51,453 bases of DNA from the IMG/VR virus record IMGVR_UViG_3300032327_000831, positions 1-51,453 of that record. One strand, given 5' to 3'. The notes under the pieces were generated by a model. The model was given only the letters and a program-made list of their open reading frames with translations, was not told where the DNA came from and made no database searches. Numbering within the stretch: the stretch's first letter is position 1; the number at the start of each line of letters is the position of its first letter. Made by a program: the position numbers and the translations under genes. Positions 2,448 to 32,007 of this stretch are shown piece by piece. The DNA is from a virus. Lineage: Duplodnaviria; Caudoviricetes.

Positions 2448-3520
2448 CTATGGCAGGCGAAGGTTTAATCTGGTCAGGCATTGGGCAGGGAATCGCCAAT
2501 GCCGGGTCTACCATGGGCCAGTATTTGATGCGCAGCCAGGAACGCGAGGCCGACCGCGCGTATCGCGAAGCGCAGGCACAAGAAACACGCGACTTTCGCG
2601 CTGAGCAGAACGCGCTGTACCGGCGCCCAGTTGACGATCAGAGTGCTGGCCGCGCCGGTGGCCGAGACGCAGGCCTTCAACCAGCGGATACCGCCCCCGG
2701 GGGTGCGGCCGCAAACATGATGGCCAACAAAATGGGCATGTCAGAGGCCGAGTACGAAAATTTTTACAAAGCCAACAAGACGGGCGACTTTACCGATTAC
2801 GCCCAAGAAGTTCCCAACCGTGGCGAGGAAAATGTCATTGCTGGGTCTAAGGAAGTGCCCCAGGCTTTGAAAGAAGAATTTGCCCTTAAACGAAAAGTGC
2901 TTGGCGACTTGCAGGAAACCTATGCCCTAAAGAAGGATTTCAAAGAGGTGATGCAAGGCCGTCAAGTTGGTCTAGAAACAAACATTGGCCAAGGTGTCTT
3001 GGCTGGCGCTATTCCACTTGGCAAAGGCTCAGGCGCCGTTGCGGCAATGGGCGGTAAGCAAATCCTCAACACTGAGGGCGGCGAGACCTACAACATGTAC
3101 ACCGGCGAAAGCAAGACCACGCCGCTGGGCAAAGCGCAGATTGGCACAGAAGCCGCGCGGGCCGGAGAGCTGAGCGCCCTGGGCAAGAAGTACGGCAAAG
3201 ACATTGAGAAGATCGACGCCGAAATCCAAGGTGGCATGTTCAACAAGAACAGCAGCGAAAAAATTACGGCGTCCATGAATTCGCTGAAGGGCCAGTTTGA
3301 CAGCCTAATGAAACAAAAGGCCGACGGATTGGTGCCAAAAGATCAGATGCCAGCTTGGCAAGTCGAGGTGGATGCGATCACTGCAACGCAAGCACAATAC
3401 CGCAAACTGCTTAGCGATGCGGCAACCATGAAAGCCAACCCGCCCGCGCCCAAGCCGGACACACCCAACAAGCCCGCGCGAAACAAAGTTTTTAATCCAA
3501 AAACTGGCAACTTTGAATGA
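2444..3520 (+). CDS. Probable internal virion/ejection protein
   Basis: N-terminal GIGQGIANAG followed by a charged coiled segment; overlaps both neighbours by ATGA. Confidence 0.6.
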   Translation: MTMAGEGLIWSGIGQGIANAGSTMGQYLMRSQEREADRAYREAQAQETRDFRAEQNALYRRPVDDQSAGRAGGRDAGLQPADTAPGGAAANMMANKMGMSEAEYENFYKANKTGDFTDYAQEVPNRGEENVIAGSKEVPQALKEEFALKRKVLGDLQETYALKKDFKEVMQGRQVGLETNIGQGVLAGAIPLGKGSGAVAAMGGKQILNTEGGETYNMYTGESKTTPLGKAQIGTEAARAGELSALGKKYGKDIEKIDAEIQGGMFNKNSSEKITASMNSLKGQFDSLMKQKADGLVPKDQMPAWQVEVDAITATQAQYRKLLSDAATMKANPPAPKPDTPNKPARNKVFNPKTGNFE

Positions 3521-6500
3521 AAACAATCACGATCCCTACGGGGGAGGATGTCGACTTTCCGGACGACATGTCCGATGAGGCCATCCTTCAGGTACTGCGA
3601 GCCAAGTTCCCGCCACCACCCAGCCAGGGACGCCGTGATGTAACCCCATTCAAGGTCGACGTTCAACAGCCCGCGCCCGTAGCCGCGCGACCCGTGGCCA
3701 GCGCGCCGCCGGAAGACTACACCGCCGCCATGGGCGACGACTATTGGTCCGCCGTTACGGCTGCCGCCGCCCAGCCAAAGCGCGCCAGCGTGCTTGAAGG
3801 AGTAACCCTTCCCTCGCAGGCGCCGCTTATTGAGCGACGCGGTGCGCCGGTGAGCGAGGAGAAATTCAAAGAGCTAAAGCAAAAATACGACGCAGCCACG
3901 CCCAAAGACCGCGCTGCCCTGCTCCAAACCCCAGGGTTTGAAAGCTCAGTATTGCAGACCATTGACAAACAGTACCGCGCCGCGCCAGATGCTTTTGATA
4001 CTCGCCGTGAAGTGCGCCGTAATGCGTACATTGCCCAAGGCGCGGCTCCCGAATTGGCTGACCAGCTTGCTGCGCGTGATGCGGCAACAGGCGCCAACAC
4101 TCAACGTCTTAGCCAAACAAAAACTTCTGACTTCGATTTTGAAAACCGGGCAGAGTACAAGCGACCTGAAGGCAAGCTGGCCTTGGATGAGACTGGCGGA
4201 TTGATTGGCGCTCGCATGGTTCAGCCCACGGGCTTTGATCAACTTGTTGGCGCTGGCAAAGCCGTCGGCGGCAAAGTGTCGGGAACATTTCAGTCTGCTG
4301 CCGCTGGCGCCTGGCAGCTTCTTGGCGACACGGCGGAAGCGGCAGGCGACCTGGCTGGCTCCACACAATTGGCCGACGTTGGCGCGCAACTGTCCAGAGG
4401 CAATGCCTTGCAACAAAAGGCGGCAAAGGCCAAGCTGGAAGCAATTGGGGAAAACCCAAATGCTGCGCTGAATTTTATTGAAAGCGGTATCGCTGGCGCG
4501 ATCAACAATTTTGCACCGTACCTAATCAACCCCGGCCTGGGGATGACCGCTGCCGTTGCTCAGACCTTTGCTGAAGAGTACGGCAATGGCAAGCTCGCGG
4601 GCCAGACCATGGGCCAGGCGCTGCCGCGCGCGGGAATGATGGCTGCGGCTGAGTGGATCGGCGAGCATTCCAGCCTACCAACGCCTTTGATGAAGGGGTT
4701 CAAAAATTTAGTCAAGGGCGTGCCTGACAACGAGATCATGCCGGTGTTTGCCCGGTACTTGGCCAAAGAGAACGTCGCTGAGCAAGTCACCACCGCAATG
4801 AATTTTGGCACGGACAAATGGGCGCCTTTTGGCTTGACCCCCGACGCCACGCTCAAAGACTATCTCAGCGCTGTCGGCGACACGTTTTACCAAACAACCG
4901 CCCAGACCCTGGTCATGGGCGGTGCAGGCCGGGTAGCTGCACCTATTGCCCGCAAACTGCAAGACCTCACCACAAGCCCAGCCAGCGCTTTTGCCGATGC
5001 GTTTGCTGGCGATGTGGCCGGTGCTCAATTTAACCCTTCCGCGATCGACGCCTACGCCCGCCGCGCGCTGGACGTGCAGTCCTACGACGCCAATATCATC
5101 ACGCCCCGTCAGCAGGCCCAGGTCCAGCAGGACCAAGCTGCGCTGCAAGGATCAACCAGCGCTGGTGACGCGGCAGCCGCTGCGGACAACCTGGCCGGAT
5201 CACTGAGTGAGATGCTGGTGCCGGGCCAGGCCGTGACCCCACTACCGACTCGCATCGAACCAACCCTGACTCCGGGCTTACCCGCTGCGCCTACTGTTGT
5301 GGAACCCACCTTGGATTTGAGCCTGCCCCCGGCAGATCAGGGTCTACCCGCAATCAACCCGGCCACTGAGCAGCAGTTTGGCCTGGACAAACTGCGCATC
5401 AACCCACCGCGTCCGCAAAGCATTCAAGGCCAACCTGTCGCCAGCCTTACTGACGAAGACCTGACCGGCATTGCCAATGACGACAACGCGCATTCAATGA
5501 CCCGCCGCAGCGCGGCCATTGAGTTGACCGCGCGCCAGGCTGAACAGCAGGCCGGGTCAAAAACACCGGGCCAGGAACTTGCGCCCACGGCGGCACCAGA
5601 GAACGAGCCGCCTATTGCCCCTGGCATGACGCGGCTATATCACGGAAGTGCAGTTCACGGACGTTATGACGGCCCCGCATGGTTTTCAACCAACCGCAAT
5701 TACGCTCAAAACTACCGCGATAACGCTGAGCTTCAGTATGTTGACGTCCCAACGGCGTATGCAAACAAAAAAGCTGATCCTGATAATTACGGGCAAACTC
5801 CGGATAAGGGGTTTACCTTTAACGTCGAGTTAGATTCCGATATAACCGGCCCCAGAAAGCCTGTTGCGCCCACCGCTCAGACCTTCACCCCCGCCGAGCT
5901 GGGCGCGATGACGCTGGGTGAGCGGCGCACCATGTCGCAGAATTTTGACCAGACGGAGAATGAAGATGGCACCACAACCTTTACCGCCAAGCCCGCCACC
6001 TTTGATCTGGGCGCCACCGAAGGGCGGGTGCCTAACGCCCCTGTTGCGGCAACTGGAGACGCCGCCCGTGCCGATCTCCAAACCCAGCTAGACCGGATTG
6101 CGGCGCAGCAAGGCGTCGCCATGCCGGTCCTTGCCACCCCTGTAAAGTCGGATGAAGCCGCAGTCAACGTCATTGCTGAGGCCCTGGGCGGCACCGGAAA
6201 TGTCGTGGCGTATGCGGACCCCAACGGCGCAGACGGTTTTGAGCTGGGCGGCAAGATTGCAATCAACACCCAGACCCAAAAAGGTATTGCCGCTACGTCC
6301 TGGCATGAGAGTTTTCACGTTGCCGAAAGGATGGCGGAAGCTGACACCCAGGCTGGCCGCACCAACACCCCGGCCCAGCAATACGTGGCGTCAATCCACA
6401 GCCTGTTTGACGACATGTCCGATGCGGGCAAACGCGCTTACGTTGAAAACTTTCTTCACAAAGACGAGCTGGCCAGTATTGTCGACCCTGTTGCGCGAGA

Positions 6501-9500
6501 ACAACGGTTTCAACAACTTTTGTCGGCGCCACTGTTGCGCTCTGAAATGTCGGCAGACTTCATGGGCAACCGTGCCACGGACCGCCCGTTCCTGGCGTCT
6601 TTGGCTGCGGCAGACCCCAAAGGATTTGACGGATTTGTCAAAAAATGGATCGGCATTTTGGACAGCATGCTGGTCCGCCTGCGCGGCGTCAAGGGCGCGG
6701 CTCGCGACAAATTAGAGTCGGTCAAAGTTGATAAATACATCAACGATTTGAACCGGGCCAAAATGATTGCGCGCGATGCTATGGTAGCATTCCGCAACGG
6801 CACGCTCCAGCAGTCTGCCCCAACAACCACGCCCCCGGCAATGAGCCAGCGGCAAGGAGAACTGAATGCACAGACCACTACCCTTGGACGAGGTGAAAAC
6901 CTACCAGGACAACCAGCGCAGGATCGACGAGGCCTTGATGAATATGGGAGCAATCCGGCCCCGAGCTACGGCACCGCAAGAGCAGGCGCCATCTCGGTCC
7001 TCGGCAGGCACTACTCAACAACCCCCCGCCAAACGTTAAGCGGAGAATATTATGGCCGAGGACTCAAAGGGGCAGAACGTACTCGCCTGGACAGTAGCCC
7101 TGATCCTCGGCTTAAAAACCGAGTCTACTTTTACGTTGACCAGGGCAACGGAGTCCGGCCAGAGGCAGGGGTTGGGGGGTACGCTCACGAAACCAAGCTG
7201 GACAACATCTACGATCCACAAACTCGACTCATCAAGCCCCAAGCAGACGCCAATGCTTTTGAATCCGCAGTAATCAACGCTGGTTTTGACGGCTACATTG
7301 CGCCGTTCGGTAACGGCCAATCAGCCGTGGTCCTGTTGGGAATGAAGCACAAAGCCGTGCCGGTCCGCCAGATTGGCCAACCCCAGGCAGCAGCCCTGCC
7401 CGCAGAAGCAGCGCCGACCACCCTGAAAAAGGGCCTCATGTCGAAAGAGCTGAGCCAAATCGACACGTCCGCCATTCCTGGCGCTCGCGTGCGCGCAGGC
7501 ACCCTTGAGATTCCGGCAGAGCAGCAGGAAGCGGCCAACGCTGAGCTGACCAGGATCGGCAGCACAATCCGGTTTGCCAAAAAAGAGCGCGTGAAATCTG
7601 CACGCGTCATGTTTGAGGTCGCACCTGACCCCAACAACACCGAGCTAAAAACCCGCTGGGACGCGGTGCCGTTTGATCGCAAGGTTCAGATTAGCCAGCG
7701 CGTTGCGGAACAGATCATGCCCCAGGTGTTCAAGCTGGCCGGGGTGCGCGCAAAGCTCAGCACCCAACTGGGTGGCTACCTGGACGACACCAGCCCATCA
7801 TTTGCAGCCATCGTCCCCAGCACCGCCTCTGCGCAGCAGCTCATGGACGTGGCCCGCGTGGGCGGCTTTGGCTTGGCCCAGGACAGTATGATGGTTCTGG
7901 ACTCCAAGCCTTTTGAAGGCTCGTCGCCCACCGGTTTGATCACGGTCACGCTGCCCGAGAACATGCAGGGCCAGGAAGCGGTGCATTCGGTTTACCGGGC
8001 CGTGCGCCAAGTGTCGCCAGAAAACATCAGTGGCCACACAACTGTTGGCCAAGAGATGGTTTTGGCCGTGCCCTCTGATAAGATGGCCGACCTTACTTCA
8101 AAAATTGTGGGCGTGCTAGACGCGCGCGCCGAAGAATTTGTTGTTAATTCAGCCGAAGGCCACATGGCCTTCCCATCCAAAGAGGAGTACGACTATGGTC
8201 AGCAAACAGGGAAGCTCCCTCCCGAGCTTTCTGCAAAACGGGCAGAAGCTAATCGCATCCGCGAAGAAGCCAGCGCCGCAATCGAAAGCGAACTCGCAAC
8301 CGACGAAAGCGCCGGTGGGCGCCAAATAGACACCAGCGTTTACCGCAATGTCGCAGACGCCATGGGCTTGTCCCGGGCGGAATACAACGCCAGCGCCCTG
8401 CCGCTTATGCTGGGCGGCACCGGTGATAAAACCTTCCGAGCGCCAAACATCGGCGGCGTCCCCGAGGTAGTGCAGTGGCTGGACCAGCGCCGCGCTGCCA
8501 GCGGCCTGGCCACGCTGGACATCAACAAAGCAGAAGATCGCACGACCCTGGCCAAGCTGCTGGCGGCTGAGGCTGTGGCCGCGATCCGCAGCGCGGGCAA
8601 TGCGGTGGAATGGTACGACGAGACAGTGGCCAAAACGCTGCGGATCATGGCGGTCAAATACCCTGAGCTGAACACCGACCAAAACGCACGGAATGCGTTC
8701 TTGATGGCGGTGGCCATATCGTCTCAGACCATGAACGTTGAGGACAACCTGCGCTACGCGTCGAGCCAGTACGAGGCTTTCCGCAAGGATGGGGTATTCC
8801 CAGAAACGGGCACCGGCAAATCCGCGCCAGCAATGGCCGAAAATTTCAAGCTGGCCAACAAGGTCCTGGCTGATTTTGGCCCGGAGAAAACGCGTCAATT
8901 CTTGCAAACCGAATTCACCAAGCGCGAGCTAGAGATGTCGGGCTACGCTATCGGCGGCGAATCGATGGACGAAAAAATGCTTGGCTCGGCTGTGTTTGGA
9001 CCCAAGATCGGGTTTGGTTTCTACAGCAACCTGACGGGCAATTTTGAACCGGTCACCATGGACATGTGGTTCATGCGTACCATTGGTCGCCTGGCCGGTA
9101 CGCTGCCAGCGTTTGACCCAGTGCTGTTTCCCAAGCAAGTGGCCAAGCTGCGCACCGCCTTGGCCGAAACTGGTCCGGCAGATCGCGGCGTGTACGCGAA
9201 CCAGTTCAGCAAAGAGATGGTCGACGCGGCCATGCGGACGGACAAAGGCGCCATCGCCATGGCCCGTGCGGTCAATTCCCTGCACAACCGCCAATTCATC
9301 AAGGAGCGGGCCGCATTCGACTCTGGAGCGCGGATAAAAAGCGCTTTGGTGGGTGCATCAGGCGCCATCTTAAAATCGGCTGACAAGCCCACAGACAGCC
9401 CGTCTAGCGGCGGCGAGCGCCAGCGCCTGCGTGAGGTGGTCCGCCAGATGGTGGACATGGTGGAGCAGCAAACGGGCAAGCGCGTGCCGCCAGCGGCATT

Positions 9501-9987
9501 GCAGGCGCTGATCTGGTATCCGGAACAGGAGCTGTACAAGAAGCTGGGCGTGCGCCTGCGGGTGACTAGCCAAGACTATGCGGGTGCGGCAAAATCGCTA
9601 CTTACGAAAGAAGGTTTTGATGGAAAACGAATCAGCACAGCAGCCAAATCTGGACCAGGATCAGCACGACCAGTGGCTGGCCAGCCAAACGCCGGAAAAA
9701 ATGGATCGAATGGTGGGCCGGTTGAAGGCCTTGTTCCTCTCCAAGGAGAAGAGCGGGAAAGTTTCATCCGGGAACGTGCTGCCAAAATCGCAGCCGACGC
9801 CGTAAAAGCCCAACCACTTGAAGACGTTTTTATTGGGTTGGATAAACGTGGCCTGGCCAGGACCCGAGCCGAGGCCGCGTTCACCGCGCGGCCAGATGGC
9901 GCACGAATTAAATACGTGCAAGAGAATTTCAACGACATCTTGATCGAGCTGGAAGACGCCGACAAGGTAAAGATCAACTGCAAATAA
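3517..9987 (+). CDS. Giant (2156 aa) polyvalent internal virion protein with ART-like, zincin-like and HhH-like modules
   Basis: LYHG..WFST..YA (about 5626-5720); HESFH plus downstream EMSADF (6301-6560); HYS..VYFY..GFDGY (about 7006-7300); WY..GPK..F..VTMDMW..R..QALIW (about 8600-9520). Confidence 0.75.
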   Translation: MKTITIPTGEDVDFPDDMSDEAILQVLRAKFPPPPSQGRRDVTPFKVDVQQPAPVAARPVASAPPEDYTAAMGDDYWSAVTAAAAQPKRASVLEGVTLPSQAPLIERRGAPVSEEKFKELKQKYDAATPKDRAALLQTPGFESSVLQTIDKQYRAAPDAFDTRREVRRNAYIAQGAAPELADQLAARDAATGANTQRLSQTKTSDFDFENRAEYKRPEGKLALDETGGLIGARMVQPTGFDQLVGAGKAVGGKVSGTFQSAAAGAWQLLGDTAEAAGDLAGSTQLADVGAQLSRGNALQQKAAKAKLEAIGENPNAALNFIESGIAGAINNFAPYLINPGLGMTAAVAQTFAEEYGNGKLAGQTMGQALPRAGMMAAAEWIGEHSSLPTPLMKGFKNLVKGVPDNEIMPVFARYLAKENVAEQVTTAMNFGTDKWAPFGLTPDATLKDYLSAVGDTFYQTTAQTLVMGGAGRVAAPIARKLQDLTTSPASAFADAFAGDVAGAQFNPSAIDAYARRALDVQSYDANIITPRQQAQVQQDQAALQGSTSAGDAAAAADNLAGSLSEMLVPGQAVTPLPTRIEPTLTPGLPAAPTVVEPTLDLSLPPADQGLPAINPATEQQFGLDKLRINPPRPQSIQGQPVASLTDEDLTGIANDDNAHSMTRRSAAIELTARQAEQQAGSKTPGQELAPTAAPENEPPIAPGMTRLYHGSAVHGRYDGPAWFSTNRNYAQNYRDNAELQYVDVPTAYANKKADPDNYGQTPDKGFTFNVELDSDITGPRKPVAPTAQTFTPAELGAMTLGERRTMSQNFDQTENEDGTTTFTAKPATFDLGATEGRVPNAPVAATGDAARADLQTQLDRIAAQQGVAMPVLATPVKSDEAAVNVIAEALGGTGNVVAYADPNGADGFELGGKIAINTQTQKGIAATSWHESFHVAERMAEADTQAGRTNTPAQQYVASIHSLFDDMSDAGKRAYVENFLHKDELASIVDPVAREQRFQQLLSAPLLRSEMSADFMGNRATDRPFLASLAAADPKGFDGFVKKWIGILDSMLVRLRGVKGAARDKLESVKVDKYINDLNRAKMIARDAMVAFRNGTLQQSAPTTTPPAMSQRQGELNAQTTTLGRGENLPGQPAQDRRGLDEYGSNPAPSYGTARAGAISVLGRHYSTTPRQTLSGEYYGRGLKGAERTRLDSSPDPRLKNRVYFYVDQGNGVRPEAGVGGYAHETKLDNIYDPQTRLIKPQADANAFESAVINAGFDGYIAPFGNGQSAVVLLGMKHKAVPVRQIGQPQAAALPAEAAPTTLKKGLMSKELSQIDTSAIPGARVRAGTLEIPAEQQEAANAELTRIGSTIRFAKKERVKSARVMFEVAPDPNNTELKTRWDAVPFDRKVQISQRVAEQIMPQVFKLAGVRAKLSTQLGGYLDDTSPSFAAIVPSTASAQQLMDVARVGGFGLAQDSMMVLDSKPFEGSSPTGLITVTLPENMQGQEAVHSVYRAVRQVSPENISGHTTVGQEMVLAVPSDKMADLTSKIVGVLDARAEEFVVNSAEGHMAFPSKEEYDYGQQTGKLPPELSAKRAEANRIREEASAAIESELATDESAGGRQIDTSVYRNVADAMGLSRAEYNASALPLMLGGTGDKTFRAPNIGGVPEVVQWLDQRRAASGLATLDINKAEDRTTLAKLLAAEAVAAIRSAGNAVEWYDETVAKTLRIMAVKYPELNTDQNARNAFLMAVAISSQTMNVEDNLRYASSQYEAFRKDGVFPETGTGKSAPAMAENFKLANKVLADFGPEKTRQFLQTEFTKRELEMSGYAIGGESMDEKMLGSAVFGPKIGFGFYSNLTGNFEPVTMDMWFMRTIGRLAGTLPAFDPVLFPKQVAKLRTALAETGPADRGVYANQFSKEMVDAAMRTDKGAIAMARAVNSLHNRQFIKERAAFDSGARIKSALVGASGAILKSADKPTDSPSSGGERQRLREVVRQMVDMVEQQTGKRVPPAALQALIWYPEQELYKKLGVRLRVTSQDYAGAAKSLLTKEGFDGKRISTAAKSGPGSARPVAGQPNAGKNGSNGGPVEGLVPLQGEERESFIRERAAKIAADAVKAQPLEDVFIGLDKRGLARTRAEAAFTARPDGARIKYVQENFNDILIELEDADKVKINCK

Positions 9988-13400: not shown

Positions 13401-13853
13401 ATTGTCAAGCAATCCGACACCGGGGCCGAGGCTGCGCAAAAACGCGCTGCCTGGATGTGGAAACAAATCACCCCGGCAATTGCCGTGGGTAACACTGTGT
13501 TTGAGCGAGCGATGAACGTGGTGGCCAACGTTACGGGTCAACCGGTCAAATTGGGCCTGGCTGAATACACCGGTATTGGCAAGGACGGCTTGCCAATCAC
13601 GCCTGGCTACGCGGCACTGCAAACGGTGGGCGTCAAGGCCCGACCGATCGACCTGGATACGTCAGAGAAAATTCAGGCGTCGCAAACCAAGGCTCTGATC
13701 CGCGAACTCGAAACGCAGATCAAGCAGAGCCAGCGTTTGGAAAACAAGGGTGCAATTACTCCAGAGTCTGGAGAGGCTGCACGGGAGAAGCTGCGTGAGA
13801 AAAAGTTGAATCTTCGCCAGGGCCTTACGGTATCTGGTGAAGAAAAGGATTAA
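10500..13853 (+). CDS. Large internal virion protein (1117 aa), LPD38-like C-terminal region
   Basis: YLPR, WKEGKTVLNP..HANN, EDDFFR, FSYDDM..PFFAYTYK, LPEWMK and PIDL motifs resemble the C-terminal part of large ejected polyvalent proteins. Confidence 0.65.
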   Translation: MAKDCTYRFTDRDGKERVIQGQAAFKAYLVDGGLQHLLPTAKVAFSGVQKLNPEAPSRAEQKNASASRIEGKSADRFKRTEQLQQAVADLEEGKITRDKYNRMVDELRPVYPYAQVPAVTSPKDARYALATGKGQSPEKAAKYGVPTMTLTKGDWAQLRLDIPSYQLHDAWVVSVHTPKSTNREVQAAYDAGTVVGYESVAALTDVTFGMNQRAVSMIAKGTSKGTVATMLGKWSPISKEDAKARADAALNDPAWTQVGMDPFRHSYFYDRDSMRPVLSADEVIQVGPLVLAKNVKFGQDTDITGAPIRFSQRQPVGKETEGWLLSRDELGRFRFGAGAKAYRYAADVANSVLDLVGLKPVSPELARAMRKMRTEVEKAQNLTVDVAKSMKDLPEQERQMISDVIEGELKRGAKPPKRVLELAASMQSIMSEQSAELVRLGMLSPGAAGRWDGKYLPRFYEQKLGDETKAWMKAVKGLLGRKKTMQGIGGNSLKARGMFETVPVDDLADWEAEGWEVRDDAFDPAVDTEITVWRDYTRTERDDMGEIRDAMFRFVMGYNKSQRDIALGRLYENLATNYASKKEQPGYVQVPRTNVEDTFAKRYGALAGKYVPAEILDQLVAFDSDMQNDLTKIYLKGLSMWKEGKTVLNPVAHANNVLSNLTMAHFAGVSYWDAHKYIGSIKDLIKGDAMVDEAKEAGLFGGTFNRTELADAMPEELKVLAQMAESKSKRAVEMVWNGLSLWLRKPLGKAYGAEDDFFRYLIYRDARKNGLNVDDSVDYALKYMFSYDDMPKGVRFLRDMPLGLPFFAYTYKVVPALANTALEHPARYAAPAVALYVANAAMYAMAASMGGGDDEDWWTVIRRYMTDPEFRQRAKDQEQQERKALPEWMKGASLSLGTEKTIRLGMDDLTNLPVFLDVSRIFPGGDLFDAHNNAGGIPLLAPLTPNSPILTIASAMLFNKDTFRGQEIVKQSDTGAEAAQKRAAWMWKQITPAIAVGNTVFERAMNVVANVTGQPVKLGLAEYTGIGKDGLPITPGYAALQTVGVKARPIDLDTSEKIQASQTKALIRELETQIKQSQRLENKGAITPESGEAAREKLREKKLNLRQGLTVSGEEKD

Positions 13854-25874: not shown

Positions 25875-27235
25875 GAACCAGACTAGATTTTCGCGAGTAC
25901 CAGGACCAGGCAGACCAGTTCATCACGGCCAACCGCAGGTCTTACCTGGCAGCCAAAGCCGGGGCAGGCAAGACTGCGGTGGCCCTGTCGTTGATTGAGC
26001 GGTTGATGTTCGACCGGTTTGAGGTGGCCAAGGTTTTGGTGGTGGCGCCAAAGAGGGTGGCCCAGCAATGGCCCAGCGAGGCCCAGGGATGGTCGTTCAG
26101 CAGGGGCCTGCGGTTCGGTGTGTACGTTGGGGCGCCTGAAGCGCGCAAAGCGGCCCTGGCGGCTTCCTGGGACGTGCTGACGTGCAGCTTTGACCACTTC
26201 CCTGAACTGGTGCAGCAATTCAAGCTGGCCGACTGGCCGTTTGATCTGGTGATCTTCGACGAGGCCAGCAGGCTGAGAAAAGGTGGGCGCAAGGGCAGCG
26301 TCGGGTGGAAAGCCATGAACGCGATCAGCGCCAAGACGGACGCACGCATTTTGCTGATGAGCGGCAGCCCCCGGCCAGGCACAGCGCATGAACTGTTCGC
26401 GCCCGTGTTCCTGCTTGACCAAGGCCAGCGCCTGGGCGCCACCCTGACCGGGTTCAGGTCAGATTACCTGGAGCCGAACAAACAGAACCGGCAGACCGGC
26501 CAGGTCTATAGCTGGCAACTGAGAAAGGGGATGGAGGCCGCGCTGTACAACCGGATCGCGGACCTCTACTTCGCGGTGGCGCCTGACTTGGGTCTGAAGT
26601 CGGTGGTGATCGACCGCTACGTCGCCCTGCCAAAGGCGGTGGAGAAGGCGTGCATGGACCTGCAAGCCAACCAGGTCCTGGACTTTGACGACCTAAGCCT
26701 GACGGCAGCAAGCCAGGGCACGGTGGCAGGCAAGCTCCACCAGATGTGCCAGGGCGCGGTGTTTGGCGACGATGGCAAGGTTCAATTGCTGCACAACGAA
26801 AAGCTGGATGAACTGGATCAGATCGTGGAGGAGGTGGACGGCCCGCTGATCGTGGCGTACTGGTACACGCACGACTTCGACCGGCTGAAAGCCAGATTCC
26901 CGGCGGCGGTGGACATCACGACACCGGACGGCTTGGCAGCGGCCAAGGCTGGCCAGGTTGAGCTGGCGCTGCTGAACCCAGGCAGTGCTGCGCACGGGAT
27001 CGACGGCCTGCAAAAGCACTTCAATGCCATTGCGTGGTTCACAATCCCGGCCAGCTTTGAGATGTACGACCAGACCAACAAGCGGATCGTGCGTAGCGGC
27101 CAGGTGGGCGACACGACCAGCATCTACCGGATCATCGCGGCCAACGGCATTGCAGACGAGCGGCTGCTGGCCGGGCTGTACCGCAAAGAGCAAGAGCAAG
27201 ACGCATTTTTTAAACACTTGGAAAGCAAAACATGA
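25871..27235 (+). CDS. SNF2-like superfamily 2 helicase
   Basis: YQ, GAGKT, VLVVAP, IFDEAS, SGSP, HGIDGLQ, Q..KRIVRSGQ. Confidence 0.88.
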   Translation: MRTRLDFREYQDQADQFITANRRSYLAAKAGAGKTAVALSLIERLMFDRFEVAKVLVVAPKRVAQQWPSEAQGWSFSRGLRFGVYVGAPEARKAALAASWDVLTCSFDHFPELVQQFKLADWPFDLVIFDEASRLRKGGRKGSVGWKAMNAISAKTDARILLMSGSPRPGTAHELFAPVFLLDQGQRLGATLTGFRSDYLEPNKQNRQTGQVYSWQLRKGMEAALYNRIADLYFAVAPDLGLKSVVIDRYVALPKAVEKACMDLQANQVLDFDDLSLTAASQGTVAGKLHQMCQGAVFGDDGKVQLLHNEKLDELDQIVEEVDGPLIVAYWYTHDFDRLKARFPAAVDITTPDGLAAAKAGQVELALLNPGSAAHGIDGLQKHFNAIAWFTIPASFEMYDQTNKRIVRSGQVGDTTSIYRIIAANGIADERLLAGLYRKEQEQDAFFKHLESKT

Positions 27236-27687
27236 CAAGCAGAGAAAAAATCACCAGCGCGCAGACAAGCAAGAACCTGCAAGACCCGCCATCGGGTGAG
27301 CTTGGCGACATCGACATCATCAGGGCTTGTGGGATGGCCGGACAGAGCAACCCGCTGGGGTTGTCGATTTGGAGGTGGCGTTACGCCGGTGACAACCGCG
27401 AGATTCACAAGATCGCGGAGGCTTTGATGGGTATGGGGCACGAAGTGGACACGGTGTTCACCGTGTTGCAGCACCTAAGCAGGGAGGTGTGTCCGGTTTG
27501 CTTTGGCAGGGGATACGGTGTGGTGGAAGGCACACCCATTTTGAACGGCGAGATTTGCATGGACTGCAACGGCACCGGCAAACGCCAACTCCACGGTGAC
27601 GCGGAATTGGCGTTAGTCGAAGTCATCGTAAGGCTGGAGCGGGACGTGGCCCGCCAGATACAGCAGAAGCTGTCTACCGCCGAATGA
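27232..27687 (+). CDS. Zn-finger protein, probable Q-like late antiterminator
   Basis: CPVCFGRG...CMDCNGTG; last gene of the replication operon; late promoters are followed by terminators. Confidence 0.6.
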   Translation: MTSREKITSAQTSKNLQDPPSGELGDIDIIRACGMAGQSNPLGLSIWRWRYAGDNREIHKIAEALMGMGHEVDTVFTVLQHLSREVCPVCFGRGYGVVEGTPILNGEICMDCNGTGKRQLHGDAELALVEVIVRLERDVARQIQQKLSTAE

Positions 27688-28540: not shown

Positions 28541-28554
28541 ACCAGTCTCCAATG

Positions 28555-28575
28555 AAAAAGGGGGCCGAAGCCCCC
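28555..28575 (-). terminator. Intrinsic terminator after DUF932
   Basis: Minus strand ggggc-ttcg-gcccc core followed by ttttt; the same UUCG hairpin without T tract recurs at about 29619-29632. Confidence 0.75.
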
Positions 28576-29537: not shown

Positions 29538-29552
29538 AAATTTTCCTTTAAC

Positions 29553-29591
29553 AAAAAACCAGGCCGTTGTCGGTCGCCTGGATACACCGCC
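29553..29591 (-). repeat. 39-bp repeat copy C (terminator-like hairpin plus U6 before RBS)
   Basis: Minus strand ggcggtgtatccaggcgaccgacaacggcctggtttttt, identical at 30129-30167 and 31080-31118. Confidence 0.95.
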
Positions 29592-29638
29592 TAAACCCGG
29601 CACGCCAGGCTTAGGTGAGGGGCCGAAGCCCCAGGGGG

Positions 29639-29829: not shown

Positions 29830-30117
29830 TTACACCTGCCGAGAAGTGACCATGACCTTGGTCACGGCAGTAACTTTTTCCACAAGGCCGATTCTGTCGC
29901 CCAGGAAAATCTCCACTTTGCGTGGGTCGTAGCTGGTACGCTGCTGTTCCACGATCGTGGCCGTGTACAAGTCGCCGTTGTACTTGTCGACGCCGCCTTT
30001 TTTGAGGCGGGTCTTGATAGCGTCTGCCTGGGCAGTAAGGCGGCTGATGTCAGCGAGCAACACGCCGAGCGTGTCGATGTCGTCGGCGGTGATCGCCTGA
30101 ATGATGGTCTTAGCCAT
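29830..30117 (-). CDS. Hypothetical early protein
   Basis: GGAG SD before ATG 30117; IDTLG.LLA.I..L..QADAIK..L coiled segment. Confidence 0.65.
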   Translation of the reverse strand: MAKTIIQAITADDIDTLGVLLADISRLTAQADAIKTRLKKGGVDKYNGDLYTATIVEQQRTSYDPRKVEIFLGDRIGLVEKVTAVTKVMVTSRQV

Positions 30118-30128
30118 GATGAAACTCC

Positions 30129-30328
30129 AAAAAACCAGGCCGTTGTCGGTCGCCTGGATACACCGCCAAAAAACAGCGCGCTGCCCTTTGGTATTTCCTT
30201 CGCACTCCGCAGTCTGGGGGACTGGTTCTAAGCGGTCTGGCCGTTTGGTTCCCGTGAGGTACTTCGTATTTGGCTGGTTCCCTTTTTGTATCCCCCTGGT
30301 CCTTTGGGGCCTGGTCATCAATGACCAG
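30129..30328 (-). ncRNA. Candidate structured RNA/leader, short copy B (about 200 nt)
   Basis: Lies between a sigma70 promoter and a hairpin-U6; homologous to 31080-31448 with compensatory stem changes. Confidence 0.65.
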
Positions 30329-30334
30329 GACTCA

Positions 30335-30362
30335 AATGTAGCACAGTGACAGTCACCGTCAA
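30335..30362 (-). promoter_or_regulatory. Early sigma70 promoter B
   Basis: TTGACG-16 nt-TACATT with extended -10 TG; TGTTG-N8-CAACA box at 30368-30385. Confidence 0.75.
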
Positions 30363-30385
30363 GTAGGTGTTGTTTTTACGCAACA

Positions 30386-30619
30386 TTAGGTGCCGTAAGT
30401 GCCCCAGGCGGGCATCACCTGCATCCACTGTTTGGCTGAGTAAGCCAAGTCGTCAAACTCGGCCCGGCCTTCAAAGAAGTCAACCAGTTGTATGCGGTCT
30501 ACCTGCATGCGCATTGTTCTTGCGGCTTCGTCGGCATACCGCTTGAACATGGCTATGTTCATGTCCACTCTGTCCAAAACAATTTGTTGTTGCGCAGGTG
30601 CTGGGATTGGGAAAGTCAT
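30386..30619 (-). CDS. Hypothetical early protein
   Basis: ATGA overlap, GAGG SD; 77 aa ending AWGTYGT. Confidence 0.6.
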   Translation of the reverse strand: MTFPIPAPAQQQIVLDRVDMNIAMFKRYADEAARTMRMQVDRIQLVDFFEGRAEFDDLAYSAKQWMQVMPAWGTYGT

Positions 30620-30801
30620 ACTGCCACCTCTTCTGCTGCCAGGATCGCTTGCAAACCAGCAAGCATGGTCAGGGCTTCTGCCCTGGTGAGTACCGCGTTG
30701 GCGCTGGCACCCCTGAGTTGCAGGCTGAGCCAGACGCCGCCGTCGTCCCAAGAATCAATGCTGACGCGCACCCGGTCTTCAGTGTGAATTACTGTTTCCA
30801 T
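30616..30801 (-). CDS. Hypothetical early protein
   Basis: GGAG SD; 61 aa. Confidence 0.65.
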   Translation of the reverse strand: METVIHTEDRVRVSIDSWDDGGVWLSLQLRGASANAVLTRAEALTMLAGLQAILAAEEVAV

Positions 30802-30889
30802 CTCGATCTCCAAAAAATTCCCAGCATCCGGCTGGATCGGAGTGTTGATCACACTGCAATGCGCCCTGTCACGGCGCAGCACGCTGAGA

Positions 30890-31069
30890 TCAGACTGCCA
30901 TTTGTTCAGCAAAGATGTACTTTGCAGCGGCTTTTGCATCCTTTAGCGAATCGACGTTCCAGCCGGTGTAGCCCACACCATCGTCGTCAAAGAACAATTC
31001 GTAAACCTGAGCGGTTTGATCAAACTGGGCCCATATTTCGTAGCCGCCGCGTTTTGCAATAAGAGTCAT
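30890..31069 (-). CDS. Hypothetical first early protein
   Basis: GGAG SD directly after the 39-bp repeat; 59 aa. Confidence 0.65.
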   Translation of the reverse strand: MTLIAKRGGYEIWAQFDQTAQVYELFFDDDGVGYTGWNVDSLKDAKAAAKYIFAEQMAV

Positions 31070-31079
31070 ATCAGTCTCC

Positions 31080-31448
31080 AAAAAACCAGGCCGTTGTCGG
31101 TCGCCTGGATACACCGCCAAAAGACAGCACGCTGCCCTTTGGTGACGGTAACAGGGCGGCTAGTCCTGAACCTTGTGGAAATCTCTTCGCTCCCGTCGTT
31201 TGCTGGTCTAAAGACCACCGTTGCGCCATTGCTTCGAGCCTCGGGTTGATACCCCGGTGAGGTTGTCTACGTCGTTAGCGTTGCCTGTTTGCTATTTCCT
31301 ACCGTCTTAATCGGTTCCTTCGCACTCGGCAGCCTGGGGGGCTGGGTCTAAGCGGTCTGGCCTTTTGTTTCCCTGGTCGGTACTTCGTAATCGGCTGGTT
31401 CCCTTTTTGTATCCCGCTGGTCCTTCGCGGTGGGTCGTTAATGACCAC
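31080..31448 (-). ncRNA. Candidate structured RNA/leader, long copy A (about 370 nt)
   Basis: No plausible ORF; chain of short hairpins; promoter upstream and hairpin-U6 at the 3' end; covaries with copy B. Confidence 0.65.
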
Positions 31449-31454
31449 AACTCA

Positions 31455-31483
31455 AATGTAGTGACACTGACAGTTCCTGTCTA
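31455..31483 (-). promoter_or_regulatory. Early sigma70 promoter A
   Basis: TAGACA-17 nt-TACATT with AT-rich upstream sequence. Confidence 0.75.
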
Positions 31484-31496
31484 GTATTATTTTGTT

Positions 31497-31584
31497 TGTT
31501 GCGTAAATACAACAAAAATAATTTAGAAGTGTTGTTTTTATGCAACAACCAAGTGTTGTTTTTATGCAACATAAGGTGTTGATT
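31497..31584. promoter_or_regulatory. Three TGTTG-N8-CAACA palindromes and an IHF consensus site
   Basis: Boxes at 31497-31514, 31530-31547, 31554-31571; AATCAAcaccTTA on minus strand at 31572-31584. Confidence 0.7.
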
Positions 31585-31603
31585 TTTTCTAGTTTTTGAC
31601 CAC

Positions 31604-31632
31604 TTGACCTGAAATCTCCTTTGGCGTACACT
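31604..31632 (+). promoter_or_regulatory. Late promoter 1
   Basis: TTGACC-17 nt-TACACT. Confidence 0.75.
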
Positions 31633-31679
31633 TTTTGCGCACAGTTGCGTCTGCGATTTTGCTAATTAAGCTCACAACC

Positions 31680-31703
31680 AAGCCGCCCAAAAGGCGGCTT
31701 TTT
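31680..31703 (+). terminator. Terminator in the late leader (tR'-like)
   Basis: aagccgcc-caaaa-ggcggctt-ttt. Confidence 0.8.
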
Positions 31704-31716
31704 CATTGGGAAAATC

Positions 31717-32007
31717 ATGGAAACCATCACCATCACCGTCGGCGACGACAAGAAGATCACCGTCACGACTGGCGGCGATGAATCTGAGAACCAACAGCCT
31801 GGCAGCCCGGGCGGCGCGATGCAGGAAGGCCAGCAGCCCTATGAATGCCAAAGCGCCGACGAGTGCCTAAAGTACGTCGGCATGATCCTGAAAGAAGAGA
31901 TGGGCGAAGGCGCCCAAGAGGAAGCCACCGAAGGCCCAGAAGACTACGGTCAGATGTGGCAGCAAGAGGCGCAAAAACGCAAACCCCAACCCGGCCTGAT
32001 GGCCTAA
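31717..32007 (+). CDS. Small acidic late protein
   Basis: 96 aa, E-rich; first late ORF. Confidence 0.65.
   Translation: METITITVGDDKKITVTTGGDESENQQPGSPGGAMQEGQQPYECQSADECLKYVGMILKEEMGEGAQEEATEGPEDYGQMWQQEAQKRKPQPGLMA

Follow-up and report, generated by a model that had tools for sequence, protein, structure and literature searches.

Structured leader RNAs directly behind the early promoters of an uncultured freshwater phage and their possible role in antitermination

The window analysed here is the full 51,453-nucleotide (nt) stretch of viral DNA held as IMG/VR record IMGVR_UViG_3300032327_000831, a 51.5-kb virus that is about 92% complete and represents an uncultured freshwater phage. Its leftward early operon carries two copies of a 140-nt leader core, each directly behind a promoter, and three copies of a cassette of about 70 nt formed by a hairpin, a pseudoknot and a U-tract, which stands in front of early genes. 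All leader, promoter and cassette elements lie on the minus strand. Comparison with related contigs identifies the core as a real, previously undescribed family of structured RNA. It has a common secondary structure and a fixed place behind the promoter, and cassettes of defined structure follow it in strict order. We tentatively read the core as a cis-acting leader that would let RNA polymerase pass the terminator-like cassettes, a reading to which we give somewhat less than an even chance.

The common core extends over positions 31315..31454 in copy A and 30195..30334 in copy B, scoring 170.4 bits (E ~1e-43) and 152.6 bits, respectively, with the covariance model R1 described below. The whole leader spans approximately 31454-31080 in copy A and 30334-30129 in copy B. 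When the record was compared with itself by BLAST, the two copies were 84% identical over the 140 nt of the core (31315-31454) and 97% identical over the last 64 nt (31080-31143). An initial annotation, made from the sequence of this region, had proposed two paralogous RNAs directly behind promoters A and B, the second equal to the first minus about 169 nt. BLAST and a promoter scan confirm the placement, on the minus strand, and pairwise alignment confirms the difference, the extra block of copy A running from about 31314 to 31145 (170-172 nt). The stems and invariant linkers quoted at that time are all present as written. Two further statements had to be revised. The "39-bp hairpin-U6" assigned to the end of both RNAs is a near-identical block of 64-70 nt with two hairpins of 11 and 6 base pairs (bp). 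In addition, leader and hairpin-U6, which had been taken as one RNA, are two independent elements, a third cassette being present without a leader at 29617-29548. The exact 23-mer of the first linker is found at 20 loci of viral contigs. Since all of them display the same succession of promoter, RNA, hairpin and ribosome-binding site (RBS), the layout of leaders A and B is beyond chance.

Pattern scans detected the core in contigs, both viral and metagenomic, whose samples came from freshwater and estuaries. Model R1 was built from 30 distinct copies of the class found in the window (type 1), with the structure set by hand. Searched against 80 sources, which were related viral and metagenome contigs, it gave 73 matches, 51 of them distinct, and it had no match on seven chance loci. 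In the model-fitted alignment of the core, 97.1% of the cells are paired and both-side changes occur in 10 of 21 pairs. None of 500 shuffles reached the observed covariation, and pairing fell to 17-49% when the partners were slid against each other. These compensatory changes, collected from a larger set of homologues, uphold the proposal that the RNAs are structured and that their stems covary. An alignment made with MAFFT and folded with RNAalifold recovered the structure incompletely and with errors, owing to misalignment of P1 and P2.

The core has at least six helices, whose stems vary while the junctions are invariant. P1 is a variable hairpin at the very 5' end of the core, and P2 is a 4-bp helix with a conserved loop of 9-10 nt (9 nt in copy A). 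They are followed by the long irregular arm P3-P3b-P3a and by a further arm, P5-P4. P3b rests on one base pair, formed without mismatch in 42 sequences (GC in 28, AU in 10, CG in 4). P3a is flanked by an invariant AGUA on its 5' side and by GAA on its 3' side, the G of the latter being at least 90% conserved in the 30 distinct cores. This motif, bordered by P3a and the covarying P3b pair, matches at the sequence level and in the same orientation the AGUA/GAA consensus given for the sarcin-ricin (loop E) motif (PMC1865062). In one homologue (L077) a small hairpin enlarges the P3a loop. Pairing of the P2 loop with the 5' end was discarded as it fits few sequences and would involve nucleotides probably upstream of the RNA start. 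A kink-turn was also rejected: tandem G.A pairs are possible in the internal loop between P5 and P4, but the GA of the 3' strand lies two extra nucleotides away from P5, and a kink-turn, as defined in the cited descriptions, is composed of a Watson-Crick stem, a 3-nt bulge and adjacent tandem G.A pairs (PMC5435971, PMC5539422).

The association of the core with its promoter is constant. Promoter A (31455..31483, minus strand; TAGACA-17-TACATT) and promoter B (30335..30362, minus strand; TTGACG-16-TACATT with a TG extension) are predicted by consensus scan to be sigma70-like; the position and the -10 element of promoter A are kept in relatives. Each of the 30 distinct type-1 cores that were extracted starts within a few nucleotides of the -10 element. 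A pattern that described the promoter alone found 47 loci, of which six were unrelated chance matches. At each of the 41 true loci a structured core lies directly behind the promoter, of type 1 in 22 and of type 2 (see below) in 19, and none is without a leader. Upstream of promoter A there are three operator-like 16-bp inverted repeats of the form GTTG-N8-CAAC (31570-31555, 31546-31531 and 31513-31498, minus strand), and one such repeat is found upstream of promoter B (30369..30384, minus strand), all read from the sequence. They are conserved at this place in the relatives and are likely binding sites for a repressor or an initiator; a gene for such a repressor was not identified. The promoter spacer contains a further palindrome.

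The second element, the cassette, comprises an 11-bp hairpin, an H-type pseudoknot and a U-tract, followed by GGAG and ATG. Three strong matches to its covariance model R2, and exactly three, are found in the window on the minus strand: cassette 1 (31075..31144; 86.4 bits), which ends in U6 and GGAG; cassette 2 (30124..30193; 82.3 bits), directly before the RBS and the ATG at 30117; and cassette 3 (81.6 bits), which has no leader and is part of a segment (29548..29632) composed of a GGGGCUUCGGCCCC hairpin (29632-29619) and the cassette itself (29617-29548), placed before a gene whose product matches DUF932. In total, R2 gave 153 matches in 73 sources. The first hairpin has a G[CGUG]C apex. The CGGY that follows it pairs with RCCG in the loop of the next hairpin, forming helix S1, which crosses the stem S2 of that hairpin. 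S2 is a 6-bp stem (YCAGGC/GCYUGR) of -10 kcal/mol that runs directly into the U-rich tract. The pair counts show both crossing helices of the pseudoknot: among 81 distinct cassettes the variable pair of S1 is UA in 54, CG in 26 and UG in one, never unpaired, and a base pair of S2 is CG in 69 and UA in 12. Over the same 81 cassettes 97.2% of the cells are paired, with both-side changes in 12 of 21 pairs, including 10 of the 11 in the first hairpin. Each helix of the pseudoknot contributes a single covarying pair, whose two forms may correspond to two lineages.

The sequence that follows S2 is also constrained. At least four U are found within 8 nt after S2 in 83 of 84 distinct cassettes, and an uninterrupted run of four or more in 70. 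Measured from S2, the GGAG begins at 6 nt in 40 of the 84; the ATG begins at 16 nt in 40 and at 15-18 nt in 61. A stable GC-rich hairpin followed by a U-tract is the arrangement of a predicted intrinsic terminator and, on these sequence features, the cassettes look like terminators. The promoter scan of the window detected no promoter-like site inside them. A weak cassette-like match (12.8 bits, E = 0.09) at 13527-13600 of the minus strand, opposite the 3' end of a plus-strand gene, shares CCGGUGUAUUCAG and may be due to chance.

Leader and cassette follow a strict order. In 66 non-identical sources with a leader, 53 of which have at least 1 kb of upstream sequence, all 119 cassettes are found downstream of it and on the same strand, with none upstream and none on the opposite strand. 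Cassettes also precede many genes without a core. The joint between core and cassette accepts insertions. The block specific to copy A (31145..31314, minus strand) is a portable domain, termed X, which is closed by a 7-bp terminal helix and absent from copy B. It recurs with about 92% identity behind type-2 cores (L086:3584-3755 and L087:3950-4121), and in a contig of a relative (run X10) X is missing and position 31143 is joined to 31316. X is traversed by a frame that opens with ATG, but synonymous changes do not predominate among its substitutions and it has no evident RBS. In L013 an unrelated insert occupies the same core-cassette joint.

The core itself can be replaced. In sister phages the same slot behind the same promoter is taken by the type-2 core, an unrelated structured RNA of about 175 nt with a long pyrimidine-rich 5' hairpin loop and compensatory changes in at least three helices (L027:4201-4382, minus strand; L086:3405-3587; L089:1633-1811, minus strand; and 16 further loci). 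The type-1 model has no match on type-2 cores. Most type-2 cores precede the same cassette and the same gene families as type-1 cores. At least 16 unrelated genes are found in first position behind type-1 leaders, so that the leader is not gene-specific. The comparison of these sequences thus agrees with the earlier view of a modular RNA, whose core, portable insert and cassette recombine independently. These data show that phages shuffle non-coding regulatory modules in the same way as genes.

Searches of databases and literature returned no described counterpart of these elements, in line with the initial statement that the RNA belongs to no known family. Rfam 15 had no match in the whole window at the gathering score. 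With E up to 10, the region 29900-31750 gave 11 weak matches, none of them over a leader, the best (E = 0.011) being a terminator-like Trp leader on the other strand. The type-2 and X loci had no Rfam match at E <= 0.1. Among cultured phages blastn found no match, and no relative was found by protein at 60% identity; two distant phages that carry DUF932 (L084 and L085) have neither core nor cassette. A degenerate 23-mer matched six loci in bacterial and archaeal genomes, which belong to unrelated phyla and are attributed to chance because none matches the core model; no prophage or host was found by this search. Full-text searches of the articles themselves retrieved no paper describing these elements.

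In the direction of transcription, the early operon is composed of three operator-like repeats, promoter A, core A, the 170-nt insert, cassette 1 and three small genes, followed by one operator repeat, promoter B, core B, cassette 2, two genes, cassette 3 without a core and the DUF932 gene. Three cassettes and two simpler hairpin-U sites are found within 3.8 kb of this operon. Terminator-like sites are so dense that the downstream early genes should need read-through. According to the reading that we tentatively favour, the early promoters would fire and the 140-nt core would fold at the 5' end of every early transcript. Alone or with host factors, the folded core would enable the host RNA polymerase that transcribes it to pass the intrinsic terminators embedded in pseudoknots before the first and several later early genes. 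The cassettes would thus terminate transcription and the leader would suppress this termination, following the logic of processive antitermination by HK022 put or by the RNA part of conAn with a different fold. Each of the two promoters of the window, the internal one too, has its own leader, and the downstream genes are irrelevant to which leader type is present. Action on the polymerase also fits better than a switch made of aptamer and platform because the 170-nt X domain or other inserts separate core and cassette. Moreover, the phage seems to use terminator read-through elsewhere, in view of its late promoter-terminator pair and of a weak Q-like match (see below). The earlier proposal of a put-like antiterminator is in part retained: the layout of the operon fits, with terminator-like cassettes in front of most early genes and invariably downstream of the leader, but the RNA is unlike put in size and fold.

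Several observations weigh against antitermination by the leader or weaken its basis. The S2 loop has 11 nt, which is atypical for a terminator, and two cassettes (L060:2277-2345 and L081:1412-1480) keep both hairpins with GGUCUGGAG instead of the U-tract; constitutive read-through would be expected there if the cassette is a terminator. In L027 and L088 the type-2 leader runs into the gene without a cassette. Action on the polymerase would be required of both unrelated folds that share one slot. By eye, leader and cassette showed no covariation, and an automated scan was swamped by lineage effects. Concerning the RNA itself, the single-sequence fold energy of the leaders gave no signal against shuffles (z = -0.05 and +0.13), so that the structural support is comparative only. 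The family is narrow (83% mean column identity in the 30 distinct type-1 cores) and the compensatory changes of the core may reflect few events. The search patterns fixed parts of the core alignment; in copies found through the cassette or the promoter pattern, which leave the core unconstrained, the linkers are kept with few point changes. Public sequencing runs (one RNA library, X10, one DNA library and two of unknown kind) contain contigs of relatives that cover leader, cassettes and genes. Because they cover the region upstream of the promoter as well, the RNA-library contigs are uninformative on transcription, RNA ends and levels.

A stricter form of the antitermination reading, which we consider unlikely, is an RNA-only "lock and key" system. 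The pseudoknot-embedded terminators before each early gene would be the locks, and either of the two unrelated leaders, optionally with the portable third domain, would be the key that makes the host polymerase transcribing it terminator-resistant without a phage protein. If so, freely recombining early genes would be insulated from transcription that did not start at the repressible early promoter.

The alternative that survives best, although doubtful, is a stand-alone immediate-early small RNA. Transcription would mostly stop at the first cassette, releasing an RNA of 200-370 nt that acts in trans as a decoy (which the initial annotation had also proposed), a sponge or a counter-defence molecule, with type 1, type 2 and X as interchangeable cargo. 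The leader would indeed be transcribed first and has a terminator-like end directly after it. The alternation of unrelated RNAs in one slot, with a portable X that moves between them, resembles the swapping of accessory genes. The conserved single-stranded stretches and the AGUA/GAA motif could provide platforms for protein binding, and a CCAG/ACCA motif recurs five to six times in the core. The cassette, however, precedes many genes that have no RNA cargo and is therefore not a dedicated terminator of a small RNA. Every promoter has a leader with early genes directly behind it, so that read-through must be frequent. No target or partner of such an RNA was identified. GGA motifs might suggest CsrA binding; judged by the general consensus, a CsrA sponge was rejected as these motifs are nearly absent from type 2.

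We regard as improbable that the elements serve mRNA stability, processing or translation. The core would guard the 5' end, and the cassettes would be 3'-end protectors, processing sites comparable to the early RNase III sites of T7, RBS insulators between early genes, and recombination linkers such as the promoter-early stem-loops (PeSLs) of T4. The fixed distance between cassette and ATG and the position of the P1 hairpin at the very 5' end would fit this role, as would the conserved cassettes that flank a mosaic of unrelated small genes, an arrangement described for PeSLs (PMC4122927). A multi-helix core of 140 nt with invariant junctions, however, far exceeds what a protective 5' hairpin requires, the cassettes are without the promoter of PeSLs, and the U-tract kept in nearly all of them points to termination.

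Regulation by a ligand- or protein-responsive attenuator appears still more improbable. In such a riboswitch-like device the core would sense a signal and decide whether the first terminator forms. The succession of promoter, conserved multi-helix domain, terminator and RBS is that of an attenuator, the invariant junctions between variable stems agree with it, and two structural classes in one slot recall the riboswitch classes that share one ligand. Nevertheless, no conserved alternative pairing between core and terminator is found: where the terminator arm CCAGGC becomes UCAGGC, the 3' arm compensates for it, and the core sequences that would be the partners stay fixed. Pairing of J2/3 (CAAAAAGGGAACCAG) or of the P2 loop with the 3' arm of S2 and the U-tract is possible in the window and was rejected, being lost where the arm changes. 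Core and cassette tolerate a 170-nt domain or other inserts between them, the same cassette occurs without any core upstream, the downstream genes are unrelated, and there is no match to an Rfam riboswitch.

Hardly credible, finally, is a DNA-level element such as a replication origin or a recombination linker, with incidental RNA structure, or a coding amino-terminal extension: the very high DNA conservation beside iteron-like repeats and an AT-rich stretch, the frequent contig breaks inside the leader and the frame of copy B open from 30321 would fit, but the compensatory changes are strand-specific and preserve pairs that tolerate G-U, stops interrupt that frame in copy A, and the extension of the 30321-start open reading frame (ORF), which the initial annotation had listed as a possible refutation, is not conserved, 29 of 45 distinct homologues having an in-frame upstream stop, at variable positions, no more than 33 nt from the ATG. 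By these sequence criteria a coding role is largely refuted. Many contigs start or end inside the leader (L023 and L024, which are the two ends of one contig, L049, L050, L071, L073 and L064). These ends are likely assembly breaks where the conserved leader borders variable genes.

The early operon runs leftward on the minus strand and codes for small proteins without family match. The first gene after leader A (30890..31069, minus strand) codes for 59 residues with neither a family nor a PHROG match, and the four small proteins encoded after the leaders have no PHROG match. Directly before the GGAG-ATG of the second early gene there is one of the two simpler sites, a hairpin followed by U6 (30814..30836, minus strand; about -9 kcal/mol). 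The other, after the DUF932 gene, is a canonical terminator-like GC hairpin with U5 (28554..28575, minus strand; -14.3 kcal/mol). Two leader copies are found in the phage of the window alone, its relatives having one per locus, and its operon looks like two early-operon heads in tandem. Elsewhere the genome encodes a family A DNA polymerase, a DUF2800 nuclease, an Enc34-type single-stranded DNA-binding protein, a VapE-type primase and an SNF2 helicase, as well as terminase, portal and major head proteins. No RNA polymerase gene was recognised among the proteins of the window. For the 2156-residue product of one ORF (3517-9987, plus strand) PHROG gave no match. Immediately upstream of the structural genes there is a rightward promoter (TTGACC-17-TACACT) with a strong terminator-like hairpin behind it (31604-31700, plus strand), and a 151-residue protein (27232-27687, plus strand) has a weak match to Q-like antiterminators (PHROG E = 2e-6). 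Together, as predicted from sequence, they may form a late switch of the Q type.

Whatever their function, the type-1 core, the type-2 core, the X domain and the hairpin-pseudoknot-terminator cassette constitute four structured RNA elements that were previously undescribed and are specific to one clade of freshwater phages, all uncultured. Should the antitermination reading hold, the core would be a new structural variant of cis-acting antiterminator RNA, accompanied by a new type of pseudoknot-embedded terminator cassette and by a natural second class. With 140 nt, recognisable motifs, a second class and an add-on domain, it would offer a compact system for understanding how a nascent RNA reprograms RNA polymerase. 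The putative pseudoknot-embedded terminator at a fixed distance before the RBS would be an unusual expression cassette and a possible synthetic part.

To our knowledge, RNA-only processive antiterminators are very rare, the cases being put, EAR and the RNA half of conAn. Phage HK022 has two paralogous cis-acting put RNAs, putL and putR, located just behind two early promoters, which are described as causing terminator read-through without a dedicated protein; each put site has about 70 nt, two stem-loops and a short triplex (PMC9378689). The put RNA is known for factor-independent suppression of termination and for binding to the zinc-binding domain of the RNA polymerase beta' subunit. The leader copies of the window share with put their position just downstream of early promoters. 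They differ from it by a core of 140 nt with at least six helices (P1, P2, P3/P3b/P3a and P5/P4) and by their arrangement in tandem in one operon, with one copy in relatives; their antitermination is a prediction. The bipartite conAn system of Gram-positive conjugative plasmids is described as having a large RNA at the start of a long operon and as achieving antitermination over several internal terminators (PMC8191782). The phage operon is similar in having a large RNA element at its start and several internal terminator-like sites. conAn needs a protein processivity factor encoded adjacently, and in the phage operon no conserved partner protein was seen. This comparison is one of descriptions and not of sequences, between different hosts and different kinds of element. 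In antitermination of the lambda N/nut and rrn boxA types an RNA site lies close behind the early promoter and terminators are found inside the operon; nut is composed of boxA and the boxB hairpin, and protein N is encoded downstream. The leader close behind the early promoter and the terminator-like sites of the operon are reminiscent of this system. Inspection by eye against the general consensus found no boxA-like sequence or boxB-type pentaloop hairpin in the leader, and the first gene products are variable between relatives and not arginine-rich. The PeSLs of T4-type phages, as presented in the cited work, combine a terminator stem-loop with an early promoter in short conserved cassettes that flank a mosaic of small early ORFs and are probable recombination points (PMC4122927, PMC2839356). 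The cassettes reported here flank a similar mosaic and differ from PeSLs in that they are devoid of a promoter, contain a pseudoknot and end at the RBS.

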